From Thermoplasmatota archaeon (GTDB lineage Archaea > Thermoplasmatota > DTKX01 > DATEUP01), in contig DATEUP010000100.1 of assembly GCA_035283065.1 (NCBI GenBank), forward strand, positions 1 to 57,906: DNA of 57,906 nt. The letters run 5' to 3'. Every line of letters begins with the position of its first letter. The stretch's first letter is position 1. Below the pieces are notes generated by a model. The model was not told the origin of the DNA, made no database searches, and saw only the letters and a program-made list of their open reading frames with translations. Shown in pieces: positions 9,258-57,906 of this stretch. The position numbers were made by a program, and so were the translations under genes.

Positions 9258-12200
9258 TCAGACCTTCGGGCGCTTGCGCCGCTGCCTTCCGAGCAGGAAG
9301 AGCGCCGCACCCGCGCCCGCCAAGATCGGCACGAGCGCGAGGAGCCCCATCGAGGCCGGCGGCGAGGTCGTCACAGGCGCGGCCTCCGGCGCAGGCTCCG
9401 AGGGGGGCCGTTCTTCGACCACGAAGTTCACCCGCGCCTCGTTGTTGTACTCGTCGGACTCGTAGACCCGCCCCACCACGGGGCTTGCCCCCGGCTCGTC
9501 CTTCGGGTCAACAAAGAGGGCGAGCGCGTGGGCCCCCGCCTTGAGCGTGAGGGGTACGCGCAGGAAAACGGACAGCCCCGGCCCGACTGAGGGCACCTCG
9601 TCCACCAGCACAATACTTCCGTCGACGAGTACGCGAAGTCCCGTCGGCGCCGAGGCCGCTTGGCCCGCGTTTGCCACCCTCAGCACAACCTCTCCTGCAA
9701 GCTCGGGGTCGGCAAACCCCTGAGGCAGGCTCTCGACCGTGACCGTGAGGTCCGGCAACACGACCCGCACAACCGTCGCAAAGCTCGCCGTGGGTCCCCT
9801 CGCGCTCGACAGCACGACCGTCACCGGGACGCTCACGGGGACGGGCTCCCGCGGCGCAGTAATCTCGAGGAGGAGCCGCCCGCGCGCGTAGGGCGCCAGC
9901 GTAAGCGTCCCCGTCCCCAGGAAGCTCGTGTCGTTGGAGTCGCCCCGCTCGTAGCGCATGTCGACACCCCAATACTGCGGCGCGTCTACGCGCACCGTTA
10001 CGACGAAGATGTCCCGGACGTTTCCAAGGTGCCGCAGCGCGCCCTCAATCCCCACGACCCCCGAGGGCCCGACGTCGAGTCCCGACGCATTGAACGCCGC
10101 CTCAAGGCCGTAGGCGGCAGGCAACCGCACCGTAAGCGAGAGGTTCCAGGGGTCCATCGCGCCCGCCCTCAGCCGCACCGTGAGCTGGTACGACCCCGAG
10201 GGGGCCTCGGCGGGCGCCTGAACGCGAAGCGCGACCTTGCCCTGCCCGAAGGCGGGGACCTCTTCGGCCGGGGTGCCCCCGACGGAAAGCGCGCTTTCGA
10301 CGGTAAAGCCCGGAGGCGAGGCGACGACCTCGACTTCGACCGCCTCGCCGACATTCCCCATGTTCTCCAGCGTGAACTCGAACGAGGCCGCGCCGCTTGC
10401 GTCGGCGTCGACTGCGGTGCCCTGCGACCTCCACGCCGCGCTGTGCACGCTCCGGACGGTGATCTCGACGCGCGCTTCGCCCACGGCCACGCTGCCCGCG
10501 CAGGTGCCGCGCACCGTGAGGTTCAGCACTTGCCCCCCAGGGGCGTTGCCCGGCGCGGCGACCTCAAATGAAGCCGCCGCCGTCTGCCCGCCGGCAAGTC
10601 GCGCGCCAAACGGGCTCCCGAGGACCGTCCAACCCGAGGGCAGGCTCTCCACGAGCCCCAGCGTGCAGTCGACCGGCTGCCCCGCGTTCCCCTCGTTCAA
10701 CATCGCAAACGCCGGGCGCGTCGAGCCCCCGGGGTCCACCTCGACGGCCTGGAAGTCCGGCGTCACGACGGGCCTTGCCACGAGCCCCACGCGCACGCAG
10801 AACCCCGCGGTCGCCAGGGAAAAAACATCGTTGGGGTTCTGGACCTTGAGCCTTCCGCAGTAGCTTTCGCCCGCGCTCGCGTCGACCGGCGGCGTGACGG
10901 CGAGCACGACGGCCTGCGACGCGCCCCGCGGGGCCGTAAAGTCCGCCGCCGAAAGCGCGGCGCTCCAAGCCGGGTCGAAGGGCGGCACACTCAGGGCGAG
11001 CGGCACCCCCTGCTCGTCGGCAAGGCCCGTGTTGCGCACCGTGAACGTCAAATTGGCCGTGGCCCCCGGCCACGCGGTCACGTTTTGGTCCGCAGGGTCC
11101 ACCTGGAAACGGTGCCCGGCAACGACCGTCACGTTGACGCGAAGGTCGAGCACCACGCTCGGCCGGTGCACATCCGCCACCTGGACCCGCACCACGGCCC
11201 TGTAGGGCGTAGGGTCGAAGACCGGCCCCCGGACCTCCAGGGAAAGGCCCGCCGACTCGCCGGCCTCCAAACCGAGGTCCGCGACCGGCGCCCCCGTCGT
11301 GGCATTCACCACGCCGGCGGTCCAATTCGTGGGGCCTGCGCCCACGGAGACCACGGCCCCGACGGAGAGATTCACCGCCTCCGGCGACAGGCTCGCAAAG
11401 GCGAGTGGGACACTGCCCACTTCGCCGCGGATGAGGGTCATGTCCGGCGCGTCTACCGCCACCCGGTACCCCGTCCACCGCAGTCGCAGCGGCGCGCCCC
11501 AGATCGTCGAAGTGTAGGCCCCTGTGTCGTTTTGCCAAACGACCCAAACGGAGCCGTCAGGCGCCGCAGCCGCCCGCGCGTTCACGTCGGACTCGGCCCC
11601 CAGCGAGACGCTGGAGGCCGCCGCCACCACGGACAAATCGGCCGCGTCGAGCGCGCCCGCCCGGACTTTCAAGCCGCCCCCGCCCGCCGCCGACGACCAG
11701 ACCACGAGCACCTCGCCCGAGGGCAGGAGCACAGGGCGCGGCGTCTGCGCCTCCGGCTCGCTTGCAAAGACCACTCGGTCGGCAAGCTCCACACCCCCCG
11801 TCGCGTTGAGCTTTACCGCGTGGACGCTTGCGCCGTCCGACCATACGGCCACGACCCCGCCGTCCCCCACCGCCCCCACGCTGAGGTTCGCGGCCGTCGT
11901 GCCGAGGCTCACCGGCCCCCACGCCGCCGACCCGTTTTCGTTAAGGGCTCGCACGTATCCCGTCCCCGCCCGCGACGCCCAAGCGACCAGCATAAGCCCT
12001 GCGGGCCGGTCGTAAGCCAGCTGGGCCGGGAACCCCGTCCCGCCGTCGCTGTAGAGCGTCAGGTTCGTTGCCGTCCACGAGCCGTTTGCCGCCATCCGCG
12101 AGTAGAGCAGCGACGTGTTCCACCGCACGACGTGGACCGAGGCGTTTGCCCCCACAGCCACCGCCGCACTCGCCGTCCCGTAGGGCGTTGTCCCCACGCG

Positions 12201-12695
12201 CCGGTCCGCCACGAGCGTGCTCCCGGCAAGGTCCACGACCTTCACATTCACCGCCTGCGCCGGGAAGGCATAGGACCAGTAGACGCGCGCCATCCGGTCG
12301 GCCGCGTCGAGCGCCGCGTAAGCCCCCCGCGCCGTCGTATTCCCCCATGTGTCGTACTGGAGCCCCGGCGCCAGATCGACTTCCAAGCCGACGGGGTTTG
12401 CGTTTCCCCACTCAAACCTCTGCAGTTTCGGCGAGGTCCACCCCGGGAACGACCCGCCGAGGTAGCCCAGCACGAGGCCGCCGCCGGACTCAGCGAACGG
12501 CTCCGGGACTTCCTGGACATTCGAACCGCTCACTAGCTCGACTGCGCCCCCGACATCCAAGTACCGACCCTGAGGCACCTCGAGCGCGACCTCCGCGGCC
12601 TCCCGCCCCCCCGCGGCCGCCGGGCCCGTCACCAAGTTGCCCGCAACCAAAAGCGCGCAGAGCGCCAGGGCAGCCCCACCCGCCTTCGGCGACAT
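9258..12695 (-). CDS. Large cell-surface protein: signal peptide, propeller-like repeats, multiple NEW3/CARDB-type Ig-like domains, C-terminal TM anchor.
   Basis: I place the start at ATG 12695 (MSPKAGGAALALCALLVAGNLVTGPAAAGG is a signal peptide). The track start at 12821 would overlap the TatD gene. The C-terminal CARDB-like domain ends ...YESDEYNNEARVNFVV, followed by a Pro-rich linker and LLALVPILAGAGAALFLLGRQRRKRPKV. It has many N-x-S/T sequons. Confidence 0.8.
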   Translation of the reverse strand: MSPKAGGAALALCALLVAGNLVTGPAAAGGREAAEVALEVPQGRYLDVGGAVELVSGSNVQEVPEPFAESGGGLVLGYLGGSFPGWTSPKLQRFEWGNANPVGLEVDLAPGLQYDTWGNTTARGAYAALDAADRMARVYWSYAFPAQAVNVKVVDLAGSTLVADRRVGTTPYGTASAAVAVGANASVHVVRWNTSLLYSRMAANGSWTATNLTLYSDGGTGFPAQLAYDRPAGLMLVAWASRAGTGYVRALNENGSAAWGPVSLGTTAANLSVGAVGDGGVVAVWSDGASVHAVKLNATGGVELADRVVFASEPEAQTPRPVLLPSGEVLVVWSSAAGGGGLKVRAGALDAADLSVVAAASSVSLGAESDVNARAAAAPDGSVWVVWQNDTGAYTSTIWGAPLRLRWTGYRVAVDAPDMTLIRGEVGSVPLAFASLSPEAVNLSVGAVVSVGAGPTNWTAGVVNATTGAPVADLGLEAGESAGLSLEVRGPVFDPTPYRAVVRVQVADVHRPSVVLDLRVNVTVVAGHRFQVDPADQNVTAWPGATANLTFTVRNTGLADEQGVPLALSVPPFDPAWSAALSAADFTAPRGASQAVVLAVTPPVDASAGESYCGRLKVQNPNDVFSLATAGFCVRVGLVARPVVTPDFQAVEVDPGGSTRPAFAMLNEGNAGQPVDCTLGLVESLPSGWTVLGSPFGARLAGGQTAAASFEVAAPGNAPGGQVLNLTVRGTCAGSVAVGEARVEITVRSVHSAAWRSQGTAVDADASGAASFEFTLENMGNVGEAVEVEVVASPPGFTVESALSVGGTPAEEVPAFGQGKVALRVQAPAEAPSGSYQLTVRLRAGAMDPWNLSLTVRLPAAYGLEAAFNASGLDVGPSGVVGIEGALRHLGNVRDIFVVTVRVDAPQYWGVDMRYERGDSNDTSFLGTGTLTLAPYARGRLLLEITAPREPVPVSVPVTVVLSSARGPTASFATVVRVVLPDLTVTVESLPQGFADPELAGEVVLRVANAGQAASAPTGLRVLVDGSIVLVDEVPSVGPGLSVFLRVPLTLKAGAHALALFVDPKDEPGASPVVGRVYESDEYNNEARVNFVVEERPPSEPAPEAAPVTTSPPASMGLLALVPILAGAGAALFLLGRQRRKRPKV

Positions 12696-12763
12696 TGCAG
12701 GGGGCCCTTTCCCTTCGTTCCAATTAACCCTGCGCAATTGCGCTACCCTTCCACAACGCCCCC

Positions 12764-13621
12764 TTAGATCTCGACCTCGACGCCGTAGAGCGCTTCGGGG
12801 TTCTCCTTGTGGATCCTCCACACGCGCTCCTCTGCCACCCCCTGCTCAAGCATCGCCCGCGTCCGGCGCGGCACCGTCGCGGGCGCCATCACCGCCCCCG
12901 GCCTCCGCCTGTCGTCGATGAAGTCCGTCTCGAGCATGAACCGGTCCCCCTTTCCAAGCGCCTCCTTCACATTCGGCCTCGACGCCATCACGGACGGCAT
13001 GAGCCCGAAATTCTCGTCCGGCCGCACGAGCGGCCCGCAGTAGTGCTTCGCCACCTTCGCCTTCGAAAGGCCCGAGGCCTCAACCCGGGCCGCGAGGTCC
13101 TTCATCACTTCGACCGTCGCCGACTCCGTGTGGAGCTGAACGGCGAGCCCCGCGTCCTTCGCGGCCGCAAACTCAAAGGCCATCAGCCGGTTCGAAAACG
13201 CCCACATCTCCTCGGACACCGCGTAGTGGGGCCGACCCGCCTCCGAGAGCGCGACGACAAGCGGCTCCTCGCGCGCGATCTTCACGCACTGCCCGATGGC
13301 CCCCGTGAGGAGATCCCACGCGCCCTCGAAGCCCAGCCGCTCGCCGTGCCTCGTGAACTCGGCGGGGTGCGGGCAGAGCGCGACGAAGCACCGGACGTCG
13401 CCCCGCGCGTTCACGGCCCGCCCCATGTCAACCGTTCGCACGAACTCCGCCCGGTACGCTTCCGCCGTTGTCGAGAGGGCTTCGAAGTCGGGCTTGTGCA
13501 CGAGTAGGAAGTGCGTGCCCCCCGCCTTCACGAACTCGTCGACGCTCGCCTGGTAGCCGCCGTGGACGGGGTCAAGGTGGAAGTGGTCGTCAAAGACCGG
13601 CACGTTCGGAGGGGCTCCCAT
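12764..13621 (-). CDS. TatD-related metal-dependent hydrolase (TIM-barrel, archaeal COG1099 type).
   Basis: 285 aa. It has the N-terminal metal motif VFDDHFHLDP and later His/Glu/Asp ligand contexts (LHTES, ETDFID). Confidence 0.75.
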   Translation of the reverse strand: MGAPPNVPVFDDHFHLDPVHGGYQASVDEFVKAGGTHFLLVHKPDFEALSTTAEAYRAEFVRTVDMGRAVNARGDVRCFVALCPHPAEFTRHGERLGFEGAWDLLTGAIGQCVKIAREEPLVVALSEAGRPHYAVSEEMWAFSNRLMAFEFAAAKDAGLAVQLHTESATVEVMKDLAARVEASGLSKAKVAKHYCGPLVRPDENFGLMPSVMASRPNVKEALGKGDRFMLETDFIDDRRRPGAVMAPATVPRRTRAMLEQGVAEERVWRIHKENPEALYGVEVEI

Positions 13622-13663: not shown

Positions 13664-14224
13664 TCAAGTCTGGATGAGCCCCGCCTGCTTGAGCTCGTTC
13701 AGGATGTTCACGATCGCTTCCTTCACGTCGTCGGGCTTCTTCGCGCCCGTGCAGACCATCTTGCCCGACCCGAAGAGCAGGAGGACGACCTTCGGTTGGT
13801 CCATCCGGTAGACGAGCCCCGGGAATTGCTCGGGTTCGTACTCGACCTTCTCGAGGCCGAGCGACACCGTGATCGTGTTCAAGTTTAGGGGGCTCCCAAG
13901 GTCCGTGGAGGCCACGAGGTTTTGGATCGTGATCTCCACCTTCTCCGAGACCTTCACGCCCGAGGCGATGAGCCGCTTAATCACCGTGTTGATGGCCTGG
14001 TGGACTTCGGGGATCGACTTTGCCCCCGTGCACACCATCTTGCCGGAGCGGAAAAGGAGCGTCGCCGTTTTCGGGCTCTCCAGCCGGTAGATAAGCCCGG
14101 GGAAGCGCTCGGGCTCGTACTCCGCGCCCTCCAAGGTTAGGGCGATCGAGGGCAGGTCAAGCTCGTTGTCAAGGAGAGATGTCGCAACCACGTTCTCGAT
14201 ACGGAAGTCTGGCAGGGAGATCAC
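13664..14224 (-). CDS. tbp: TATA-box-binding protein.
   Basis: 186 aa with two direct TBP repeats: IENVVATSLL...FPGLIYRL..PKTATLLFRSGKMVCTGAKS and IQNLVASTDL...FPGLVYRMDQPKVVLLLFGSGKMVCTGAKK. GTG start. Confidence 0.95.
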   Translation of the reverse strand: MISLPDFRIENVVATSLLDNELDLPSIALTLEGAEYEPERFPGLIYRLESPKTATLLFRSGKMVCTGAKSIPEVHQAINTVIKRLIASGVKVSEKVEITIQNLVASTDLGSPLNLNTITVSLGLEKVEYEPEQFPGLVYRMDQPKVVLLLFGSGKMVCTGAKKPDDVKEAIVNILNELKQAGLIQT

Positions 14225-14354: not shown

Positions 14355-14378
14355 GGGGTCTCGAATGACCCCAAAAAA
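14355..14378 (-). terminator. Oligo-T tract plus GC hairpin after the coiled-coil/KaiC-like gene pair.
   Basis: On the minus strand, 9 nt after the stop at 14388, TTTTTT (14378-14373) is followed by the hairpin GGGGTC-ATTCGA-GACCCC (14372-14355). Confidence 0.5.
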
Positions 14379-14387
14379 CGCTCTTCC

Positions 14388-16646
14388 TCAACGGATCTTG
14401 TCGAGCGAGAACGAGCCGATGTTGATGCCCTTCCGCGAATACTCGTAGGAGATCCACCCGCGGTTCTGCGCGTCGGTGATCCCGACCACGCGGATGTAGT
14501 TCTTCGTGTTTTCCGTCTTGACCTGGATCGAGCCGTCCATCGCGTGGGCGAGGTTTGCAAGGTCCGTTGCCGAGTGCATGGCCTCGTCGAGCGCGTAGAC
14601 CGAGACGGCCTTCTTCATCTTGCTCTTGCCCGTGAGCATCTGGAGGAAGCGGAACGTGGCCGTGACATCCGAGTACGTGATGAAGGTGGAGATCGACATC
14701 ACCACGACGCGGTACGTGGGGTGCTTCTCCTCCTTCGTCCACCTGTCCGTGATGACCTCCATGGCTTCCATGATCGCCTTGTAGTCCGTCGGGTGGTCGA
14801 TGAACGCGGCATATTTGTTCTCCTCCGCCTCGCCCATGGCGCGCGAGTAGCAGTCGACCCACCGCAGGAGCCCGAGCTTCTCATACTCGTCGATCGACGG
14901 GAGGATCGCCGCCAGCTCCTGCTTGACGGACGCGGGCGCGACATCCGTGAGGACCATCGCGACGGGAACGCCCTTCTGGAGCCCCTCGGCGGCGAAGGCA
15001 TACATGAAGACCTCCTTGCCGATGAACGCCGGGCCCGACACGAGGATGTTCCCGCCGATCGGGAACCCCCCGTACACGAGGTCGTCCATGCGCGGCGTGC
15101 CGGTCTTCACCTTGCGCGCCTTCATCTCGAGCTCGATTTCCTTCTTGCGCATGTCGACGTCTTCGCGGACCGCCGCCTCTTCCTTGATGCGCAGCTGGCC
15201 CTCCTTCTGGCGCAGGAACGACTCCTTGGCCTTCATCTCCTCTTCCTTGGCCGCAATCTCGCGCTCGAGCTGCTGGAGGCGCTTCTTCATCTCGAGCTGT
15301 TCGACCGAGCCCTCCTGCTGCTTGGCCTCCTGGAGCTGGCGCAGCGACTGCTCGACGACCTTCTGCTTGTAGTCGAGCTCCTCCTGGCGCCGGTTGAACT
15401 CCTCGTCCTTGTACTTCACGACGGTCTTGAGTTTCCTAAGCTCGTCCTCGCGGGACTCCATCGAGATCTTGAGTTCCTTGATCCGGTCGTCGCGCTCGAC
15501 GATGAGCTTCTGCATTTCCGGGAGTTCGTTCATCTTGTTGTTGAACTGGGAGTCGGCCTCCTCGCGGCGAAGCTCGCGCTCCTCCTTGAGGCGCTGGAAC
15601 TGCTCCGTGAGTTCCTTCTCACGGGCCTTGAGGCGCCGGTCCTCGGCCTCGAGCTTTGCGCGCGCGTCCGCGAGCTGGAGCTCCTTGGCCTTGACCGCCT
15701 CGCTGTCCACGGCGGGCCCGCCCCGGACCGGGACCGGGCGCCCGGCGACGGGCTGCGGGAGGGTGCCCGCCTTCGCGAGGGCCTCGCGCTTCTCGACGAC
15801 TTCCTTCTCGAGCGCCTGGACCTGCTCCTCGAGCCCCTTGCGCCGTGATTCCTCCTCGCGGGCCGTCTCGCGGAGCGACTCGAGCTCCTCGTCGTGCTTC
15901 TTGCGCTGGAGGTTCGTCACGTACTTCATCATCGCAATCGAGCCCTTCTTGAGGTTCTCGAGCTCGGCCTCGATCTCCGCGCGCCGCTTCTCCTCGCGCG
16001 AGTACATGTCGCGGAACTCTTCGAGTTTCATTCGCGCCTGGCGCAACTCGTCCTCCATCGCCTGGACCTCGGCGGAGGTGAGGCCGAGCACGGCGGCGCC
16101 CACCACGCCCTCGCCGGCCTGGGCGCGCATGAGCTTCTCGCGGAGGTCCTCGACCTCGGCCATCTTCTTCTTGAGCTCGAGGCGGGCCTTGTCGAATTCG
16201 TCTTCCTTGACGCGGATGTACTCGTCGGCCTTCTTGAACTCGGCGTACTGCTCGAGCCGCCGGTTCATGTCGTTGAGCTCCTTCTCGTACTTGATGCGCT
16301 GGAGCGCGATTGTGTTGCGCATCTTGATCTGGAAGTCGTTCTTGACGCGGTTGAGCTCCTCCTCCTTGGCGGCAAGGTCGGCCTTGAAGTGCTCGAGCTC
16401 GGCGCTCGCGGCCTGGCTGGCGGCGCGGCCCGAGCCGCCGTCGACGGTGATCGAGCGGGCGCCTTCGCGTGTGAGCCCTTCGGTTTCCTCGCCGCCTTCG
16501 GTCTCGCGGGCCTTGAGGATCTCGCCGCGCCTGCGGTATGCCGCCATGTAGCGGTCCAGCGGCGAGCGGGGGGCGATTGCGGGGACTTCTTGCGTGGCCA
16601 CGGCGCTTCCCCCCGCCTCTTTGAGCCTCGATCGGGGCGGGGGCAT
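14388..16646 (-). CDS. Coiled-coil protein (about 480 aa of heptad-rich sequence) with a C-terminal KaiC/FlaH-like RecA-superfamily domain and a degenerate Walker A.
   Basis: 752 aa. The long E/K/R/L/Q-rich region is followed by GTPRMDDLVYGGFPIGGNILVSGPAFIGKEVFMYAFAAEG, the KaiC-type P-loop context with Glu in place of Ser/Thr. It ends DGSIQVKTE..YIRVVGI...ISYEYSRKGINI, as KaiC-like domains do. Confidence 0.8.
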   Translation of the reverse strand: MPPPRSRLKEAGGSAVATQEVPAIAPRSPLDRYMAAYRRRGEILKARETEGGEETEGLTREGARSITVDGGSGRAASQAASAELEHFKADLAAKEEELNRVKNDFQIKMRNTIALQRIKYEKELNDMNRRLEQYAEFKKADEYIRVKEDEFDKARLELKKKMAEVEDLREKLMRAQAGEGVVGAAVLGLTSAEVQAMEDELRQARMKLEEFRDMYSREEKRRAEIEAELENLKKGSIAMMKYVTNLQRKKHDEELESLRETAREEESRRKGLEEQVQALEKEVVEKREALAKAGTLPQPVAGRPVPVRGGPAVDSEAVKAKELQLADARAKLEAEDRRLKAREKELTEQFQRLKEERELRREEADSQFNNKMNELPEMQKLIVERDDRIKELKISMESREDELRKLKTVVKYKDEEFNRRQEELDYKQKVVEQSLRQLQEAKQQEGSVEQLEMKKRLQQLEREIAAKEEEMKAKESFLRQKEGQLRIKEEAAVREDVDMRKKEIELEMKARKVKTGTPRMDDLVYGGFPIGGNILVSGPAFIGKEVFMYAFAAEGLQKGVPVAMVLTDVAPASVKQELAAILPSIDEYEKLGLLRWVDCYSRAMGEAEENKYAAFIDHPTDYKAIMEAMEVITDRWTKEEKHPTYRVVVMSISTFITYSDVTATFRFLQMLTGKSKMKKAVSVYALDEAMHSATDLANLAHAMDGSIQVKTENTKNYIRVVGITDAQNRGWISYEYSRKGINIGSFSLDKIR

Positions 16647-16711
16647 TAATAAGGGTTTGTCGCAGGGGTGCGGCCTTTGCAGGGTCGGGGGACAGGGGAG
16701 CTTGAAGGGCG

Positions 16712-19700
16712 CTACCCCTCCGTCGAGCTCCCGACATCCGCGCTCTCGATCATGCGGATGCGCCCCTCATCGAACCGGTAGAGGGCGCGCGGGCGCTTGA
16801 GCACGACGTCCGTAAGGTTCGCGATCGCAATCTCGCCGAGGAAGTCCTCCGTCCTTGAGATGTCGCGCATGACAAGGACGCCGTCGACGGACTTGTCCGC
16901 GTTGTGCTGGTCGTCGCGCTCTTGGACGAGGATGAGGTCGCAGTTCGCGCCGCGCACGAGGTCCCGCTGGAGGGTCTCAACCAGGGACTTGTACTCGATC
17001 CCGTACTTGCGGGCAAGGGAATCGGCGCGGTCAACGACGATGACGAGCTTGCTCGGCAGGAGGCGCTCGACGGCGTCGTAGAGGTTCACGATCTCGGCCA
17101 TCGCCGGGTTGAGGGCAAGGAGCCTGGCGATGCGCTCCGTGTTGATCCGGTAGGTCTTCGGCCGGTCGAGGACGGGCGGCAGCGCGCCCGGGGGCAGGTC
17201 GCCTTTCAGCGAACGGACGGCGTCGACGAGCTTCTGGCGCGCGGCCCGCGCGTCCGCGCCGGGCGGCTGGAGGATTGCGTCGGGTGTGTTCGGCCGGTTG
17301 AAGAGCAGGAAGTCCTGGAGGCGCTTCTCGCCAACCCAGGCGTAGGCGTCGTGGAGGCGTTTGTCCGGCTCGTGGGTGAAGAGCAGGAGGACCTCGTCGT
17401 CGAAGTTCGCGAGGGCCTCGGCGAGCTCAAGGGCGAAGTTGCTCTTGCCCGTGCGCCGCTTGCCGTTGATGATGAGCGAGCGGCCGTTCGGCTTGTTGAG
17501 GTAGTTGAGGAGCTCCGAGGGCAGCGAGATCCGGCCCTTCGCCAGGGCGCGCCTGGCGGAGGCCTGCTGGGTTGCCGATTCGTCGAGCTTGCGCAGGGGG
17601 GCGAGGTCGGAGCCCGAGGAGGAGAGGACGGAGATCCGCTCCTCAAGGTCGCGCCTTGAGGCTTGCGTGCCCGACGGGGTCGCCGCCTGCGGTGCCATCG
17701 GCGGGCCGGGCCCGGGGGCCGCGGAGGCTAGGGAGGCGTGGGGCGCCTGGAGGGGCACAGGCCCCGAGGCGCCGGCGGTCGAGGATGTGGGCGTTTGCGG
17801 CGCGGCCTGCGGGGGCGCGGGCTGGTTCTGGACGGCCGCGGCCGCGCGCGCCGCCATGGAAGCCGCGCCCTTGGCCTCCGCGCGCGTCTTGTTGAGGTCG
17901 AGGCGCACGCCCTCGATCTCCTCCATCGCGAAACGCAGCTGGAGTTCGATCTCGTTGCGCTGCCGGCGCTCCTTGTCGACCTGCTGCTGGACGTCGGAAA
18001 GCGCCTGGTCCTTCGCACGGACGAGCTTGTTGGCCTCGAGCGCGTCGACCTTTGCGCGCTCAAGGTCCGTGGCGAGGTGCTTGATCTCCGCGGAGACGTC
18101 GGCCCCCGGGGACGCCGAGAGCGAGACCTTCGCCATGTCGGTCTGGAGCTTGGTGATCTCGCGGTCCATCCGGTCGACCGTCTCCTGGTCGCGGTCGCGC
18201 TGCCGCTCGGCCTGGGTGAGCGCATCGCGGACGTGCTGGAGCTCCTCCATCTGCTCCTGGAGCTTGAGCTGGGTCTCCTGGCGGCGGCGCTCCTCGTCGC
18301 GCAGGTTCGTGAGCGCCCGGTCGAGCTGCTGTTCCTTCGAGGCGCGGTCGGACTCCGCGACCTGGCGCGCCTTGTCGTTGGCCTCAGCGGAGACCTTGAG
18401 CTGCTTGACGGAGTCCTCGAGGCGCCGGGCCTCCTGCTCGACTTTGCCGCGGGCCTGGACTTCGCGCTCGACCTGCGTGCGGGCCTCTTCGAGGGCCACC
18501 TGCGTGCGCTTCGTGAGTGTCTCCTGCGTCTTTAGCGTCTCGCGTTCCTTGTTGAGCGAGGTGTTCAGCGACGCGATGTCTTTCGTCTGCTTGTCGAAGT
18601 GCTCCTGGATGACGTTGCGCTTCAGGGTGTCCGCCTCGACCTCGCGCTCGAGAGTGAGGACGGCCTCCTCGAGCTCCTTCATGCGCCCTTCGCTCACCTC
18701 GCGCCGCCTCTTCTGCTCGTCGAGCTGGCGCTTGAGGACCTCGAGCTCCTTGTCTTCGGCCTGGAGCTTCTTCGTGAGCTTGAGGGACTCGCCGCGGGCG
18801 ACCTCGAGGCTCGCCTCGAGCTCGACCATCTTGGCCTCGCCGCCCGAAAGGAGTCTCTCGAGTTCCTCGCCCCGGGTCGTCTGCCGCTTGAGCTCTTCCT
18901 CGGCCTCCAGGAGGCCCCGCTTGGCCTCCTCGAGCGCGCGCTCGGCGCGCTGCCTTAGCGAGATTTCCTCGTGGAGCTTGCGCTCATAGCGCTCGAGCTC
19001 GCCTTTGCGCTGCGCCGCCTCCTTCTCCTGGACTTCGCGCCGCTGGGACTCCTCCGCAAGGCGCGCCTTGAGGGTGGAGGCCTCTTCGACCGCGGAGCGC
19101 AGCGAGGTCTCGAGGGCCGAGAGCTTCTTGCGAGCGTCCTCCTCGGATTCGCGCATCCGCTGGGCCGCGTCGCGGGCCTCCTTGATCTCGGCCTCGAGCC
19201 GCTCCTGGTCCTCCTGCAGGACCGATTCGTGGGCCTCGAGCGCCTGCCGCTGCTGCTGGAGCTGGCCCATTTCCGCCTGCATCTCCTGCTCGACTTCGAG
19301 GAAGGACCGCTCGCGGGCGGCGGACTCGTCGCGGAACTTGAGGAGTTCCTTGAGTTTCAGGTCGAGGGCGTCCTTCTCCTCCCGCAGCTGCTTCTCGGTC
19401 TCGCCCTGGCGGGCTTTGAGCGCCCGCGCGCCCTGGAGCTCCTCCTGGAGAGAGGCCTCCTGCTGGTCGAGGCTCGCCTGGCGGGCGCGCAGCTCCTCGG
19501 AGAGTTGGACGAGCTGGTCGTTGAACGACTTGAGCTGGCGGTCGCGCTCCTTCGCGCTGATCTCGCCTTTGGAAAACCGCGCCTCGACGTCCTTCTTGCT
19601 CTTCTCGAGTTCTTCCGCGTCGTCGCGCATTTTGCGCTTGCGGCCCTCGAGATCCGTGACCTGGGCGGCAATCGCGTTTTCCCGGTCGGCCATGCCCGCT

Positions 19701-20077
19701 TCGCGGCGCCGGATCTCCATCTCGCGGCGCTCGATCTCGCGCAGCCGGTCGGCGGCCTGCAGCGCGGCTTCGTTGCCCTTGGCCTTCGCGTCGGCCTGGA
19801 GCCGCGACTTGAATGTCTGGAGGCGCGCCTCCCGGTCGGCGAGCTTCTTCAAGGTGGCGTCGAGGTCCGTGCGCCGCCTCTGCCTCTCGCTCGTGACCTG
19901 GGAGAGCTCCTGCTCCTTCTGGGCGGAGGTCTCCTCGACCTGCTTGCGGATTTCGGCCGACTGGGCGAGCTGCTTGTGGAGGGGGTCGGTCTTCGCGAGG
20001 AAGGACTTCTCGAGGATCTGGCCAAGCTGGGCTTCGTCGAGCGCAGCCACGTCGACGCCGCGCATGGCCTCGGGCAT
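16712..20077 (-). CDS. Giant coiled-coil protein (about 750 aa) with a Pro/Ala-rich linker and a C-terminal KaiC/GvpD-like P-loop ATPase domain.
   Basis: 1121 aa. The C-terminus has SLPSELLNYLNKPNGRSLIINGKRRTGKSNFALELAEAL (an intact GxxxxGKS), the Walker-B-like KLVIVVDRAD, and ends DGVLVMRD...YRFDEGRIRMI. Confidence 0.8.
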   Translation of the reverse strand: MPEAMRGVDVAALDEAQLGQILEKSFLAKTDPLHKQLAQSAEIRKQVEETSAQKEQELSQVTSERQRRRTDLDATLKKLADREARLQTFKSRLQADAKAKGNEAALQAADRLREIERREMEIRRREAGMADRENAIAAQVTDLEGRKRKMRDDAEELEKSKKDVEARFSKGEISAKERDRQLKSFNDQLVQLSEELRARQASLDQQEASLQEELQGARALKARQGETEKQLREEKDALDLKLKELLKFRDESAARERSFLEVEQEMQAEMGQLQQQRQALEAHESVLQEDQERLEAEIKEARDAAQRMRESEEDARKKLSALETSLRSAVEEASTLKARLAEESQRREVQEKEAAQRKGELERYERKLHEEISLRQRAERALEEAKRGLLEAEEELKRQTTRGEELERLLSGGEAKMVELEASLEVARGESLKLTKKLQAEDKELEVLKRQLDEQKRRREVSEGRMKELEEAVLTLEREVEADTLKRNVIQEHFDKQTKDIASLNTSLNKERETLKTQETLTKRTQVALEEARTQVEREVQARGKVEQEARRLEDSVKQLKVSAEANDKARQVAESDRASKEQQLDRALTNLRDEERRRQETQLKLQEQMEELQHVRDALTQAERQRDRDQETVDRMDREITKLQTDMAKVSLSASPGADVSAEIKHLATDLERAKVDALEANKLVRAKDQALSDVQQQVDKERRQRNEIELQLRFAMEEIEGVRLDLNKTRAEAKGAASMAARAAAAVQNQPAPPQAAPQTPTSSTAGASGPVPLQAPHASLASAAPGPGPPMAPQAATPSGTQASRRDLEERISVLSSSGSDLAPLRKLDESATQQASARRALAKGRISLPSELLNYLNKPNGRSLIINGKRRTGKSNFALELAEALANFDDEVLLLFTHEPDKRLHDAYAWVGEKRLQDFLLFNRPNTPDAILQPPGADARAARQKLVDAVRSLKGDLPPGALPPVLDRPKTYRINTERIARLLALNPAMAEIVNLYDAVERLLPSKLVIVVDRADSLARKYGIEYKSLVETLQRDLVRGANCDLILVQERDDQHNADKSVDGVLVMRDISRTEDFLGEIAIANLTDVVLKRPRALYRFDEGRIRMIESADVGSSTEG

Positions 20078-20279: not shown

Positions 20280-20657
20280 TTGAGTAAGCGGGGGGAATTC
20301 GCGGGGAGCGGGCGGGGGAGGAAGTCCTTAAGCGCGAAGCGGCCGGCGCGCCGGTACATCGGCCTCATCTATGCGCCGGCGAGCGCGACACGCCGGGAGG
20401 TCACGCGCGCAATCGAGGAGGCATGGTCGCGAAAGGGCCCTAAGGGCCCCGCGCCTGCGCCCCGCCTCCTCGTGTGCGAGGGCGGGCGGGCGATCGTGGC
20501 CGTCCCGCGGGAACTTGCCGCAAGCGCGAGGCTCGCAACGGACGCGCCTCCCCCCGCGGCGGGGGGCCTTTCGCTCTCGCCCGTCGTGACTTCCGGCACG
20601 GTGGCGGCAGTCAAGGCGCGGCTCGGCCTGCGCTCCCCGCGGCCTCGGCCCCGCTAG
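20280..20657 (+). CDS. rnp2: RNase P protein component 2 (Pop5/Rnp2).
   Basis: Only the last 125 codons of track ORF 19005-20657 look real: (L)SKRG...RRYIGLIYAPASATRREVTRAIEEAW...LLVCEGGRAIVAVPRELAASARLA...PVVTSGTVAAVKARLGL. This matches the Pop5 pattern (RY-hydrophobic strand ... GIVRC-like strand ... SGT..K). The TTG at 20280 is the only in-frame start. Its position upstream of psmA is typical. Confidence 0.6.
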   Translation: MSKRGEFAGSGRGRKSLSAKRPARRYIGLIYAPASATRREVTRAIEEAWSRKGPKGPAPAPRLLVCEGGRAIVAVPRELAASARLATDAPPPAAGGLSLSPVVTSGTVAAVKARLGLRSPRPRPR

Positions 20658-57683: not shown

Positions 57684-57755
57684 ATGCGGCCACCGGGATT
57701 CGAACCCGGGTTTAGAGCTTGGGAAGCTCCAGTCCTAACCGCTAGACTATAGCCG
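57684..57755 (-). tRNA. tRNA-Gly (anticodon CCC).
   Basis: The minus strand reads GCGGCTA-TA-GTCT-AGCGGTTA-GGAC-T-GGAGC-TTCCCAA-GCTCT-AAAC-CCGGG-TTCGAAT-CCCGG-TGGCCGC-A. It folds as a full cloverleaf with a 7-bp acceptor stem (one G-U pair), a GTTCGAAT T-loop and anticodon loop TT-CCC-AA. It has no intron and no encoded CCA, and TTT follows. Confidence 0.85.
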
Positions 57756-57906
57756 CACGTGGGGGCGCCAGGCCCGGTTGCTGGCGCGGAGCCGCGCAAG
57801 CCCGGTCGGGTCATAAATTCTTTGGGGCGAATGATCGCGGATCCCTCCGGTGGCGCGTGCGGCGGCGCCTCTCAAGTTCGGCGCGCGAAAGGAGGTCCGA
57901 GGCGAG

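Follow-up and report, generated by a model that had tools for sequence, protein, structure and literature searches.

A 57,906-nucleotide (nt) stretch of DNA from an uncultured Thermoplasmata archaeon (hereafter the window, ~69% G+C) carries two adjacent genes, which we call p1 and p2, whose products each join a long coiled coil to a C-terminal domain of the RecA/KaiC superfamily. The p1 domain is of the GvpD type and carries conserved Walker A and B motifs, whereas the p2 domain is a KaiC-like relative in which the corresponding residues have been replaced. Comparisons with other genomes place p2 in a family that is widespread among Thermoplasmata, and reveal that the particular subtype of p2 found in the window is accompanied by a GvpD-type P-loop gene directly upstream. 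We are highly confident in the anatomical description of the pair, which includes the following features (coordinates are those of the window, and aa denotes amino acids).

16712..20077, minus strand: p1 gene, an open reading frame (ORF) of 1121 aa with an N-terminal segment, a ~700-aa coil, a Pro/Ala-rich linker and a GvpD-type P-loop C-domain
17843..19927, minus strand: p1 coiled-coil rod, residues 51-745, called from a heptad score of 0.41-0.68 per 50-aa block
17588..17842, minus strand: p1 flexible linker rich in Pro/Ala/Ser, residues 746-830, called from composition and heptad score
16715..17587, minus strand: p1 GvpD-type P-loop domain of RecA/KaiC fold, residues 831-1121, called from Pfam, HMMER, AlphaFold2 (AF2) and Foldseek
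17441..17464, minus strand: p1 Walker A, G872-KRRTGK-S879 (GxxxxGK[ST]), read from the sequence; family-wide conservation of G, G and K is ≥90%
17030..17047, minus strand: p1 Walker B, L1011-VIVVD1016, read from the sequence; conservation of the Asp is ≥85% in a 127-sequence family alignment
16647..16711, minus strand: p1-p2 spacer of 65 nt, read from the sequence
14388..16646, minus strand: p2 gene, an ORF of 752 aa with a subtype-specific N-terminus, a ~420-aa coil and an inactivated KaiC-like C-domain
16530..16562, minus strand: p2 motif P29-LDRYMAAYRR39, specific to the partner-linked p2 subtype by sequence comparison
16266..16334, minus strand: p2 subtype block F105-QIKMRNTIALQRIKYEKELNDM127, with 19 of 23 residues invariant in alignment A5
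15915..15956, minus strand: p2 in-coil block N231-LKKGSIAMMKYVT244, from the family alignment and invariant in A5
15702..15770, minus strand: p2 Pro/Gly-rich break GTLPQPVAGRPVPVRGGPAVDS, residues 293-315, at the coil midpoint, with 6 Pro/Gly in the 301-350 block
14391..15131, minus strand: p2 KaiC-like domain, residues 506-752, catalytically degenerate, called from Pfam and PDB profile matches
15012..15035, minus strand: p2 degenerate Walker A, G538-PAFIGK-E545, aligned to GGPGTGKT of PH0284
14355..14378, minus strand: T6 run and hairpin directly after the p2 stop codon, read from the sequence

Anatomy of the two genes and their products

The genes are co-oriented, with p1 upstream, and lie 65 nt apart ahead of an oligo-T run and hairpin, just as a preliminary description of this DNA had reported. 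The T6 run (14373-14378) and the hairpin GGGGTC..GACCCC (14355-14372) likely constitute the transcription terminator of the p1-p2 pair. Beyond this hairpin are TATA-like elements and then the start of the TBP gene (13664..14224, minus strand). At the other end of the pair, the ATG of p1 is preceded by the Shine-Dalgarno sequence GGAGGAG. The A/T-rich sequence CTTATTAA at 16647-16660 abuts the ATG of p2 and is a candidate internal promoter element, through which p2 may have a promoter of its own. Some gene callers begin p2 at Val16, located 15 codons downstream, to yield a protein of 737 aa, and the N-terminus of p2 may be shorter than in the 752-aa call.

Given the base composition of this genome, it might be argued that the two ORFs are low-complexity, misassembled or nonfunctional sequence, because many spurious long ORFs appear at ~69% G+C and because the composition of the rods is strongly biased. 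However, identical proteins are encoded on six independently assembled contigs from JGI and Logan (p1 on two, p2 on four), and dozens of genomes carry full-length orthologues. Both C-domains yield significant domain matches, and AF2 returns a confident fold for that of p1. Furthermore, ratios of nonsynonymous to synonymous substitution rates (dN/dS), calculated relative to the orthologues at locus L009 (the nearest species-level relative), fall between 0.04 and 0.13 across coils and heads: 0.13 for the p1 coil, 0.085 for the p1 C-domain, 0.086 for the p2 coil and 0.041 for the p2 C-domain. The parts of p1 span 0.09-0.25, with the highest value, 0.25, in the linker. Both genes are real and are under purifying selection in their coils as well as their heads. 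The artefact explanation is already refuted by these results, and we assign it a negligible probability.

Coils were called with a simple heptad-periodicity score, which was compared with the scores of globular parts and of shuffled sequence. Values in a globular domain range from 0.04 to 0.38, compared to 0.41-0.68 in the p1 rod. This rod is composed of ~55% E/K/R/Q/D with almost no Pro or Gly, although a Gly-rich break is present near residues 401-415, close to its midpoint. NCBIfam matches of the rod to SMC and Rad50 are coil-only and far under the cut-offs. In the linker that follows, residues 751-800 include 17 Pro/Gly and the heptad score is negative. The score in p2 is raised over residues 86-505, with breaks near 176-195 and 293-315. 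The second of these p2 breaks is a possible hinge or hairpin apex, where the hairpin option, with antiparallel coils, is suggested by the mid-rod breaks alone. Thus, the long coils of the preliminary description are present in both proteins, whereas its term “uninterrupted” slightly overstates their continuity.

Residues 859-1070 of p1, within its C-domain, match the Pfam family GvpD_P-loop (PF07088) at a borderline 24.3 bits, compared to a gathering cut-off of 24, and a word-indexed homology search returned five close relatives only. When an alignment of close relatives was used in an exhaustive HMMER search of 1.84 billion representatives, 182 proteins were recovered at E ≤ 1e-3, including 89 at E ≤ 1e-10. 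Most of the 182 are 470-550 aa long and carry the domain at their N-terminus. Ten relatives scanned against Pfam gave matches to GvpD_P-loop in nine cases (33-78 bits), to KaiC in seven and to GvpD_bR2 (PF20440) in three, and the last of these domains is present in the ~500-aa relatives P0020, P0023 and P0024. The orthologue of p1 at locus L013 scores 35.7 bits with PF07088.

The predicted structure of the p1 C-domain agrees with this assignment. The AF2 model from a 66-sequence alignment has a mean predicted local distance difference test (pLDDT) value of 89.9 and a predicted template-modelling (pTM) score of 0.89; it supersedes a model made with six close homologues alone, whose pLDDT of 41.7 rendered it unusable. 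The best Foldseek matches of the model in the PDB are KaiC, PH0284 and FlaH (4yds), with a probability of 1.0, E values of ~1e-8 and TM scores, normalised by target length, of up to 0.62. Between strand 2 and Walker B, the domain carries a helical, Pro-rich insertion. The protein ends after the P-loop domain, and a Pfam scan found no match to PF20440 (GvpD_bR2). Lacking the bR2 domain, and with no gvp genes among the neighbors examined, p1 is a member of the GvpD_P-loop family rather than GvpD proper.

Turning to the p2 C-domain, residues 513-723 match Pfam KaiC (PF06745) with an E value of 9.8e-19 and 68.1 bits (cut-off 26.6), and the C-domain also matches DUF7504 at 6.6e-12. Its closest solved relative is PH0284 (2dr3), which is recovered at 2e-15 with the single sequence and at 2e-21 with a family profile; KaiC in the PDB is matched at 2e-21. 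Residues 516-547 read GTPRMDDLVYGGFPIGGNILVSGPAFIGKEVF, with GK-E545 where GK[ST] is expected, and a GK[E/D] ending of Walker A is found in all 73 p2 family members. The catalytic Glu pair after strand 2 has been lost, such that ‘ALEE’ in PH0284 corresponds to ‘VLTD’ in p2 (Glu-Glu to Thr-Asp). The Walker B Asp is missing as well, where ‘VVVDS’ in PH0284 corresponds to ‘VVVMS’ in p2 and the position is Arg or Glu in relatives. The protein terminates with the family signature GSFSLDKIR, a version of the general family tail GSFSLD[KH]I[RK]. Judging from these residues, the p2 C-domain is a conserved pseudo-ATPase that fits the category “inactivated KaiC.” Such domains (‘iKaiC’) are a recognised category in archaeal signalling proteins (PMC5847659).

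These data uphold several claims of the preliminary description. All of the p1 and p2 motifs it quoted are present, including the DGVLVMRD...YRFDEGRIRMI ending of p1. Both C-domains belong to the RecA/KaiC superfamily, as supported by Pfam, HMMER and PDB profile matches and, for p1, by the Foldseek matches to KaiC, PH0284 and FlaH. Also as proposed, one head is intact and the other is degenerate. The two heads show no similarity to each other by BLASTP, and a profile-profile alignment with hhalign is restricted to the Walker A region (52 columns, E=0.003). On these grounds, a recent duplication of the two heads was rejected.

The p2 family and its partner-linked subtype

A scan for relatives of the p2 C-domain, using one genome per GTDB species, identified at least 446 loci, each representing a species genome. 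Therefore, p2 is no rare oddity, but rather belongs, as a subtype, to a family that spans no fewer than 446 Thermoplasmata species genomes and that in most of them occurs without a p1-like partner. Counts out of 80 given below refer to the best 80 of these loci. All 80 derive from metagenome-assembled genomes (MAGs) labelled Thermoplasmata, Methanomassiliicoccales, Thermoplasmatota or Methanobacteriota, or in a few instances just ‘archaeon.’ The p2 homologues in all 80 fetched loci are long (575-888 aa when complete) and have a coil preceding the KaiC-like domain. The window p2 exhibits every feature of this coiled-coil and iKaiC family, namely the coil, the KKGS-IA-x-x-KY block, the GK[ED] sequence and the GSFSLD[KH]I tail. 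About half of the family carries the KKGS-IA-x-x-KY block, and the N231-LKKGSIAMMKYVT244 block is also present in 37 of 68 canonical p2 proteins.

Canonical p2 proteins have an N-terminus composed of a CxxC...CxxC zinc ribbon, often an HHH_5 domain (Pfam 5e-13), and two to four acidic ‘KWLxGE..WL’ repeats. The window p2 and its subtype lack the zinc ribbon, the helix-hairpin-helix (HhH) domain and the WLxGE repeats. Versions of the motif P29-LDRYMAAYRR39 are present in p2 at L013, L090, L092, L094, L096 and L097, and the motif is absent from canonical p2. Likewise, the motif K[ML]RN[TS]x[AS]LQR occurs in five of five partner-linked p2 proteins compared to none of 68 others. The consensus of the partner-type N-terminus is a P-x-x-RYM-x-A-[YF] motif together with the block IKMRNTxALQRIK[YF]EKExNDM.

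Some further characteristics of canonical p2 loci can be recorded here. N-termini with zinc ribbon, HHH_5 and acidic Trp repeats can be seen, for example, at L082:8381-8900, L035:8231-8900 and L015:8240-8850, and the repeat ‘L-x-K-W-L-x-G-E-[DE]...[FL]-x-x-W-L’ resembles a short linear partner-binding motif. In 64 of the 80 loci, an ORF of ~145 aa (MPVKGFEF...IMNNCIPEA...LPPP) is situated directly after, and convergent to, canonical p2, as at L033:11562-11999(-). This ORF is often followed by TiaS, has no credible Pfam match (best E=0.11) and is absent from the window. At L007:8674-10936, the p2 homologue on the ENA contig is split by frameshifts that are probably long-read assembly errors, and as a result some database entries (for example, P0013 at 311 aa) are shorter than the true ~750 aa.

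A p1-type gene upstream of p2 is found at only a few of the 80 loci, specifically L009-L011, which are close relatives of the window, and L013, where the p1-type ORF reaches up to 1577 aa. These loci are exactly those with the variant p2 N-terminus, and none of the 68 canonical p2 loci has a GvpD-type gene upstream. Further pairs are present at L090 and on the contig carrying P0002. We then have an independent view from a metagenome scan made with the p2-subtype block (alignment A5), which does not depend on p1 and which gave at least nine confirmed loci. At all seven new metagenome loci with enough upstream DNA, the gene next upstream of p2 is on the same strand and encodes a GvpD-type P-loop protein. 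Partners at L091-L094 carry a fused giant coil (1154, 1417 and 1405 aa, with L094 ending at a contig edge), whereas those at L096-L098 are stand-alone proteins of 283-289 aa without a coil.

In total, the partner-linked loci comprise the window, L005, L006, L009-L011, L013, L090-L094, L096-L098 and the P0002 contig. Wherever the flanking DNA is long enough, a partner-type p2 is invariably preceded, on the same strand and as its direct neighbor, by a GvpD-type P-loop gene. The gap between partner and p2 is 65-141 nt in 11 of 12 cases measured and 416 nt at L096. A neighbour-joining tree constructed from p2 C-domains only places all 14 partner-linked p2 proteins in one clade that includes no canonical p2. 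Thus, the pair is co-conserved, as the preliminary description had anticipated, and the conserved unit, a two-gene module of one Thermoplasmata lineage, is the P-loop partner plus the subtype of p2. The giant p1 coil, which that description took as a defining feature, is optional, because one sister lineage has a stand-alone ~285-aa partner.

Coil lengths are also informative. Proteins of the p1 type range from 1121 to 1417 aa (coils of ~700 to ~1100 aa) and their p2 counterparts from 734 to 878 aa, but the lengths are unmatched and show no co-variation, which makes a joint heterodimeric rod unlikely. Because the coil is optional and the rods do not co-vary, the conserved interaction between the two proteins, if any, must involve the P-loop domain as opposed to a shared coiled coil.

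Known relatives and possible modes of action

One of the closest known relatives of p1 is GvpD, the haloarchaeal gas-vesicle regulator, which joins GvpD_P-loop (PF07088) to GvpD_bR2 (PF20440), a second domain with arginine-rich regions; other archaea encode two-domain GvpD-like proteins as well. Haloarchaeal GvpD oligomerises, binds the leucine-zipper protein GvpE, whose gene lies directly downstream, and requires its Walker motif to remove GvpE (PMC4390858). The p1 C-domain belongs to the same GvpD_P-loop family with Walker A and B conserved, and the gene arrangement recalls gvpD-gvpE in that a P-loop gene lies directly upstream of a gene for a coiled-coil protein. In contrast to GvpD, p1 lacks the second (bR2) domain, has a ~700-aa N-terminal coil plus linker instead, and comes from a Thermoplasmata archaeon rather than a haloarchaeon. 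The p2 C-domain is clearly homologous, as judged by hhalign, to the second, P-loop-less domain of two-domain GvpD-like proteins (probability 97.5%, E=8e-12, 202 columns, compared to 52 columns with the GvpD P-loop domain), and this second domain is missing from the partner proteins.

Other relatives share the fold of the heads with different overall architectures. Along most of its length, PH0284 can be aligned with the p2 C-domain, as one of the single-domain archaeal KaiC-like proteins (PH0284/2dr3, PH0186, SSO2452; TIGR03877). However, p2 scores 62 bits compared to a TIGR03877 equivalog cut-off of 307, lacks the catalytic residues and possesses a ~420-aa N-terminal coil and the GSFSLD[KH]I[RK] tail. 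Cyanobacterial KaiC has the same fold as both heads and provides a precedent for two RecA-like domains of differing activity. In KaiC these form a hexamer of double-domain subunits, whereas the domains of p1 and p2 are on separate polypeptides and are very distantly related. In addition, p1 and p2 have no KaiA, KaiB or thioredoxin-like partner and no sign of phosphosites.

In light of the GvpD-GvpE precedent and of the two-domain GvpD and KaiC proteins, the most economical reading is that the p1 head docks on p2 and exerts nucleotide-dependent control over it. We favor this mechanism by analogy, and tentatively, since we judge its probability to be somewhat short of even. In this reading, p2 would serve as a scaffold, with a long and presumably dimeric coil (~420 aa, or ~60 nm if fully extended). 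Because the Walker A Thr, the Glu pair and the Walker B Asp have all been lost, its KaiC-like head would most likely be used for oligomerisation or docking rather than as an enzyme. The sole competent nucleoside triphosphatase (NTPase) would then be p1, whose GvpD-type head is fused via the flexible Pro/Ala linker to its own ~700-aa coil. Upon docking of this head, ATP binding and hydrolysis might control the assembly state or the availability of p2. The docking site could be the degenerate p2 head, the subtype-specific N-terminal elements of p2, or both. Should the p2 rod be bent back on itself at the break near its midpoint, the N-terminus would adjoin the head and the two would make a single site. 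Such an arrangement has precedents in the action of GvpD on its neighbour GvpE, and in KaiC and two-domain GvpD-like proteins, each of which unites an active and a regulatory RecA-like domain in a single chain.

Several points weigh against the docking mechanism. The p2 protein is not homologous to GvpE (there is no GvpE-like Pfam match), and thus the analogy extends to function alone. Where KaiC has its catalytic Glu pair, members of the GvpD-type family usually read S-T-R, and therefore nucleotide hydrolysis by p1, beyond binding, is an assumption. The notion that p2 supplies in trans the domain that its partner lacks is not specific, because the p2 C-domain is at least as similar to single-domain KaiC (PH0284, 2e-21) as to the second domain of GvpD. 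Most p2-family members have no adjacent partner, and adjacency within one monophyletic clade could in part be inherited synteny, yet the flanking genes beyond the pair are not conserved. Finally, physical contact, ATP-dependent control and a cytoskeletal, tethering or signalling-hub role are matters that we infer for this pair. What the sequences show directly are the identities of the domains, the condition of their motifs, the co-conservation and order of the genes, and the dispensability of the p1 coil.

The preliminary description had envisioned an arrangement in which active and degenerate RecA-like domains form a stable hetero-oligomeric ring, or stacked rings, on coils of myosin or SMC length. 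The product would be a structural filament, a lattice or a tether, with a cytoskeletal function or one in organising membranes or chromosomes. The fold and the active/degenerate pattern of motifs on which this idea was founded are borne out, and KaiC, PH0284 and FlaH are ring-forming proteins. The homology of the p2 C-domain to the degenerate second domain of GvpD-like proteins, the length of the coils and the purifying selection acting on them also fit, and the wide distribution of the p2 family in Thermoplasmata suggests a core role. However, a dispensable partner coil is difficult to accommodate, since the stand-alone ~285-aa partners remain unexplained. Moreover, the p1 and p2 coil lengths neither match nor co-vary, and the argument from a housekeeping neighborhood fails (see below). 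We consider stable rings or filaments of this type to be possible but unlikely.

A role on DNA might also be considered, in which the p2 family or the pair acts like RadA/RadB paralogues, or in Rad50/SMC-like bridging, to organise or repair chromosomes. In favor of this idea, canonical p2 proteins begin with a Zn-ribbon and HHH_5, a Pfam family also located at the N-terminus of RadA/Rad51, and the C-domains are of the RecA superfamily. The coils, which are comparable in length to those of SMC, Rad50 and ASRP and have a central break, produce weak profile matches to all three. On the other hand, the window p2 and its entire subtype are devoid of Zn-ribbon and HhH, the RecA-like head of p2 is predicted to be catalytically dead, and DNA-repair genes are not conserved nearby. 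The NCBIfam matches are confined to the coils and score 45 bits compared to 567 for TIGR02168 (SMC), 8-13 compared to ~1000 for Rad50, and 9.5 (p1) and 37.6 (p2) compared to a cut-off of 300 for ASRP. There is no split ATP-binding-cassette (ABC) head, signature motif, hinge or zinc hook, and the RecA-fold domain is instead complete and C-terminal. The two proteins are neither SMC, Rad50 nor ASRP, and we regard a function on DNA as improbable.

Even less probable, in our estimation, is that the p2 family provides a regulatory subunit, comparable to ArlH/FlaH, for a type IV pilus or an apparatus resembling the archaellum, with p1 as an accessory ATPase. Genes for the PilB/T2SSE ATPase and for DUF7289 pilin-like proteins occur 0.8-1.9 kb downstream of canonical p2 in 15-19 of the 80 loci, which may reflect a link to type IV pili or inherited synteny. 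Examples are located at L085:12701-14455 and L080:11692-12687. A link between KaiC-family ATPases and type IV pilus loci is common in archaea (PMC4858521), and FlaH (4yds), which like the heads is a single KaiC-like domain, is among the best structural matches of the p1 C-domain. ArlH is described as acting by oligomerising and binding its partners, and not through robust catalysis (bioRxiv 10.1101/2021.03.19.436134). However, the association with pilus genes concerns a minority of loci, and type IV pilus genes are absent near the pair in the window and in the other partner-type loci inspected. Also, ArlH has no coiled coil, and the NCBIfam FlaH score of 24.8 bits is far from the cut-off of 194.

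With due reservation, we speculate on a wider scheme that we consider doubtful. The p2 family might constitute a Thermoplasmata-wide intracellular scaffold in which rings of dead KaiC-like domains would be hubs and ~60-nm coils would be spokes. In most lineages Zn-ribbon, HhH and ‘WLxGE’ elements would target this scaffold, whereas in one lineage a dedicated GvpD-type ATPase, itself turned into a ~100-nm tether, would remodel it. If true, archaea would possess a novel type of cytoskeleton or cellular organiser powered by a RecA-fold NTPase.

The GvpD_P-loop domain, the KaiC-like/iKaiC domain and the coiled coil are building blocks that are already known. Within the sources searched, we found no description of the p2 architecture as a Thermoplasmata-wide family, of the GvpD-type head on a myosin-length rod, or of the module composed of an obligate partner and a p2 subtype. 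In agreement with the preliminary description, we found no experimental characterisation of either family, and the names in use are no more specific than ‘KaiC/GvpD/RAD55 family RecA-like ATPase’, ‘GvpD P-loop domain-containing protein’ or ‘hypothetical’. Literature on DUF7504, DUF7090, and KaiC with coiled coil in Thermoplasmata or Methanomassiliicoccales yielded nothing relevant, although the main survey of archaeal KaiC-like ATPases, which might list the architecture, was not covered. Overall, the observation reported in the preliminary description is confirmed and its interpretation is partly supported.

KaiC- and GvpD-type RecA-fold proteins have been proposed to be major archaeal signalling hubs, but few have a known partner or output. 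The locus described herein offers an evolutionarily robust pairing, and with it a concrete handle on GvpD-like function outside gas-vesicle producers and on the purpose of iKaiC domains. If the proteins form higher-order assemblies, they would add a new cytoskeleton-like or tethering element to a class that has numerous cells without walls or of unusual shape. Otherwise, the annotation retains its value by delineating a family and a module and by revealing the “informational gene” surroundings as incidental.

Neighboring genes and related loci

The neighbors verified in the window are TBP, TatD, PAP2, proteasome alpha (PsmA) and SBDS. Synteny of these genes with the pair is limited to the window's own clade, and hence the TBP/proteasome neighborhood is lineage-specific and incidental to the pair. 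The earlier argument that core informational neighbors imply a housekeeping role does not survive this comparison. A second claim about the neighborhood, that the ORF at 20283-20657(+) encodes Pop5, was not confirmed: Pfam gives no match to this ORF at E values as high as 10, and no significant PDB match, to Pop5 or otherwise, was obtained. It sits between p1 and PAP2 and has an RRYI...SGT pattern reminiscent of Pop5, and no gene was called at this position on the identical contig L006.

The usual neighbors of canonical p2 (the 145-aa ORF, TiaS, DUF531, deoxyhypusine synthase, PurM (AIR synthase), DUF7289 and PilB) are absent from the window, and guilt by association from canonical p2 loci is therefore not transferable to this pair. 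No gvp genes are present among the neighbors examined (p2, TBP, TatD, PAP2 and proteasome alpha), with the rest of the window unscanned gene by gene, and no archaellum genes are located near the pair in the window. A search of the PADLOC defence library with the pair proteins produced only a coil-level match to LmuB (E=0.0027), and a search of PHROGs produced only P-loop-level matches with E values of 0.003 or weaker. A defence-system or phage origin of the pair is not supported by these results.

Proteins that combine a coil with a C-terminal GvpD P-loop are found in other Thermoplasmata MAGs as well, such as MEM3341749.1 (1277 aa) and MEM3342626.1 (948 aa), which NCBI names only ‘GvpD P-loop domain-containing protein’ or ‘hypothetical.’ Another coiled-coil GvpD-type protein, P0113 at L089, has the degenerate Walker A sequence GKGSAGQL. 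Located 3-6 kb upstream of P0113 (L089:4078-7121) are single-domain KaiC-like genes, three in tandem, together with a gene for a small GTPase of the Ras/Arf/Roc type. The start of the two-domain GvpD-like gene P0023 (L100:5627-7566) coincides with the stop codon of a Roadblock/LC7 (MglB-like) gene with no gas-vesicle genes present, and a second gene of this type, P0020 (L101), is likewise without gvp neighbors. From these contexts, we conclude that GvpD-like proteins are widespread outside gas-vesicle producers.

Elsewhere in the window, tRNA-Gly(CCC) at 57684-57757(-) is the sole RNA gene detected. Downstream of TatD, the region 9258-12821(-) encodes a predicted surface protein of 1187 aa with NPCBM_assoc and CARDB domains, whose C-terminal hydrophobic segment followed by RQRRKRPKV resembles a membrane anchor.

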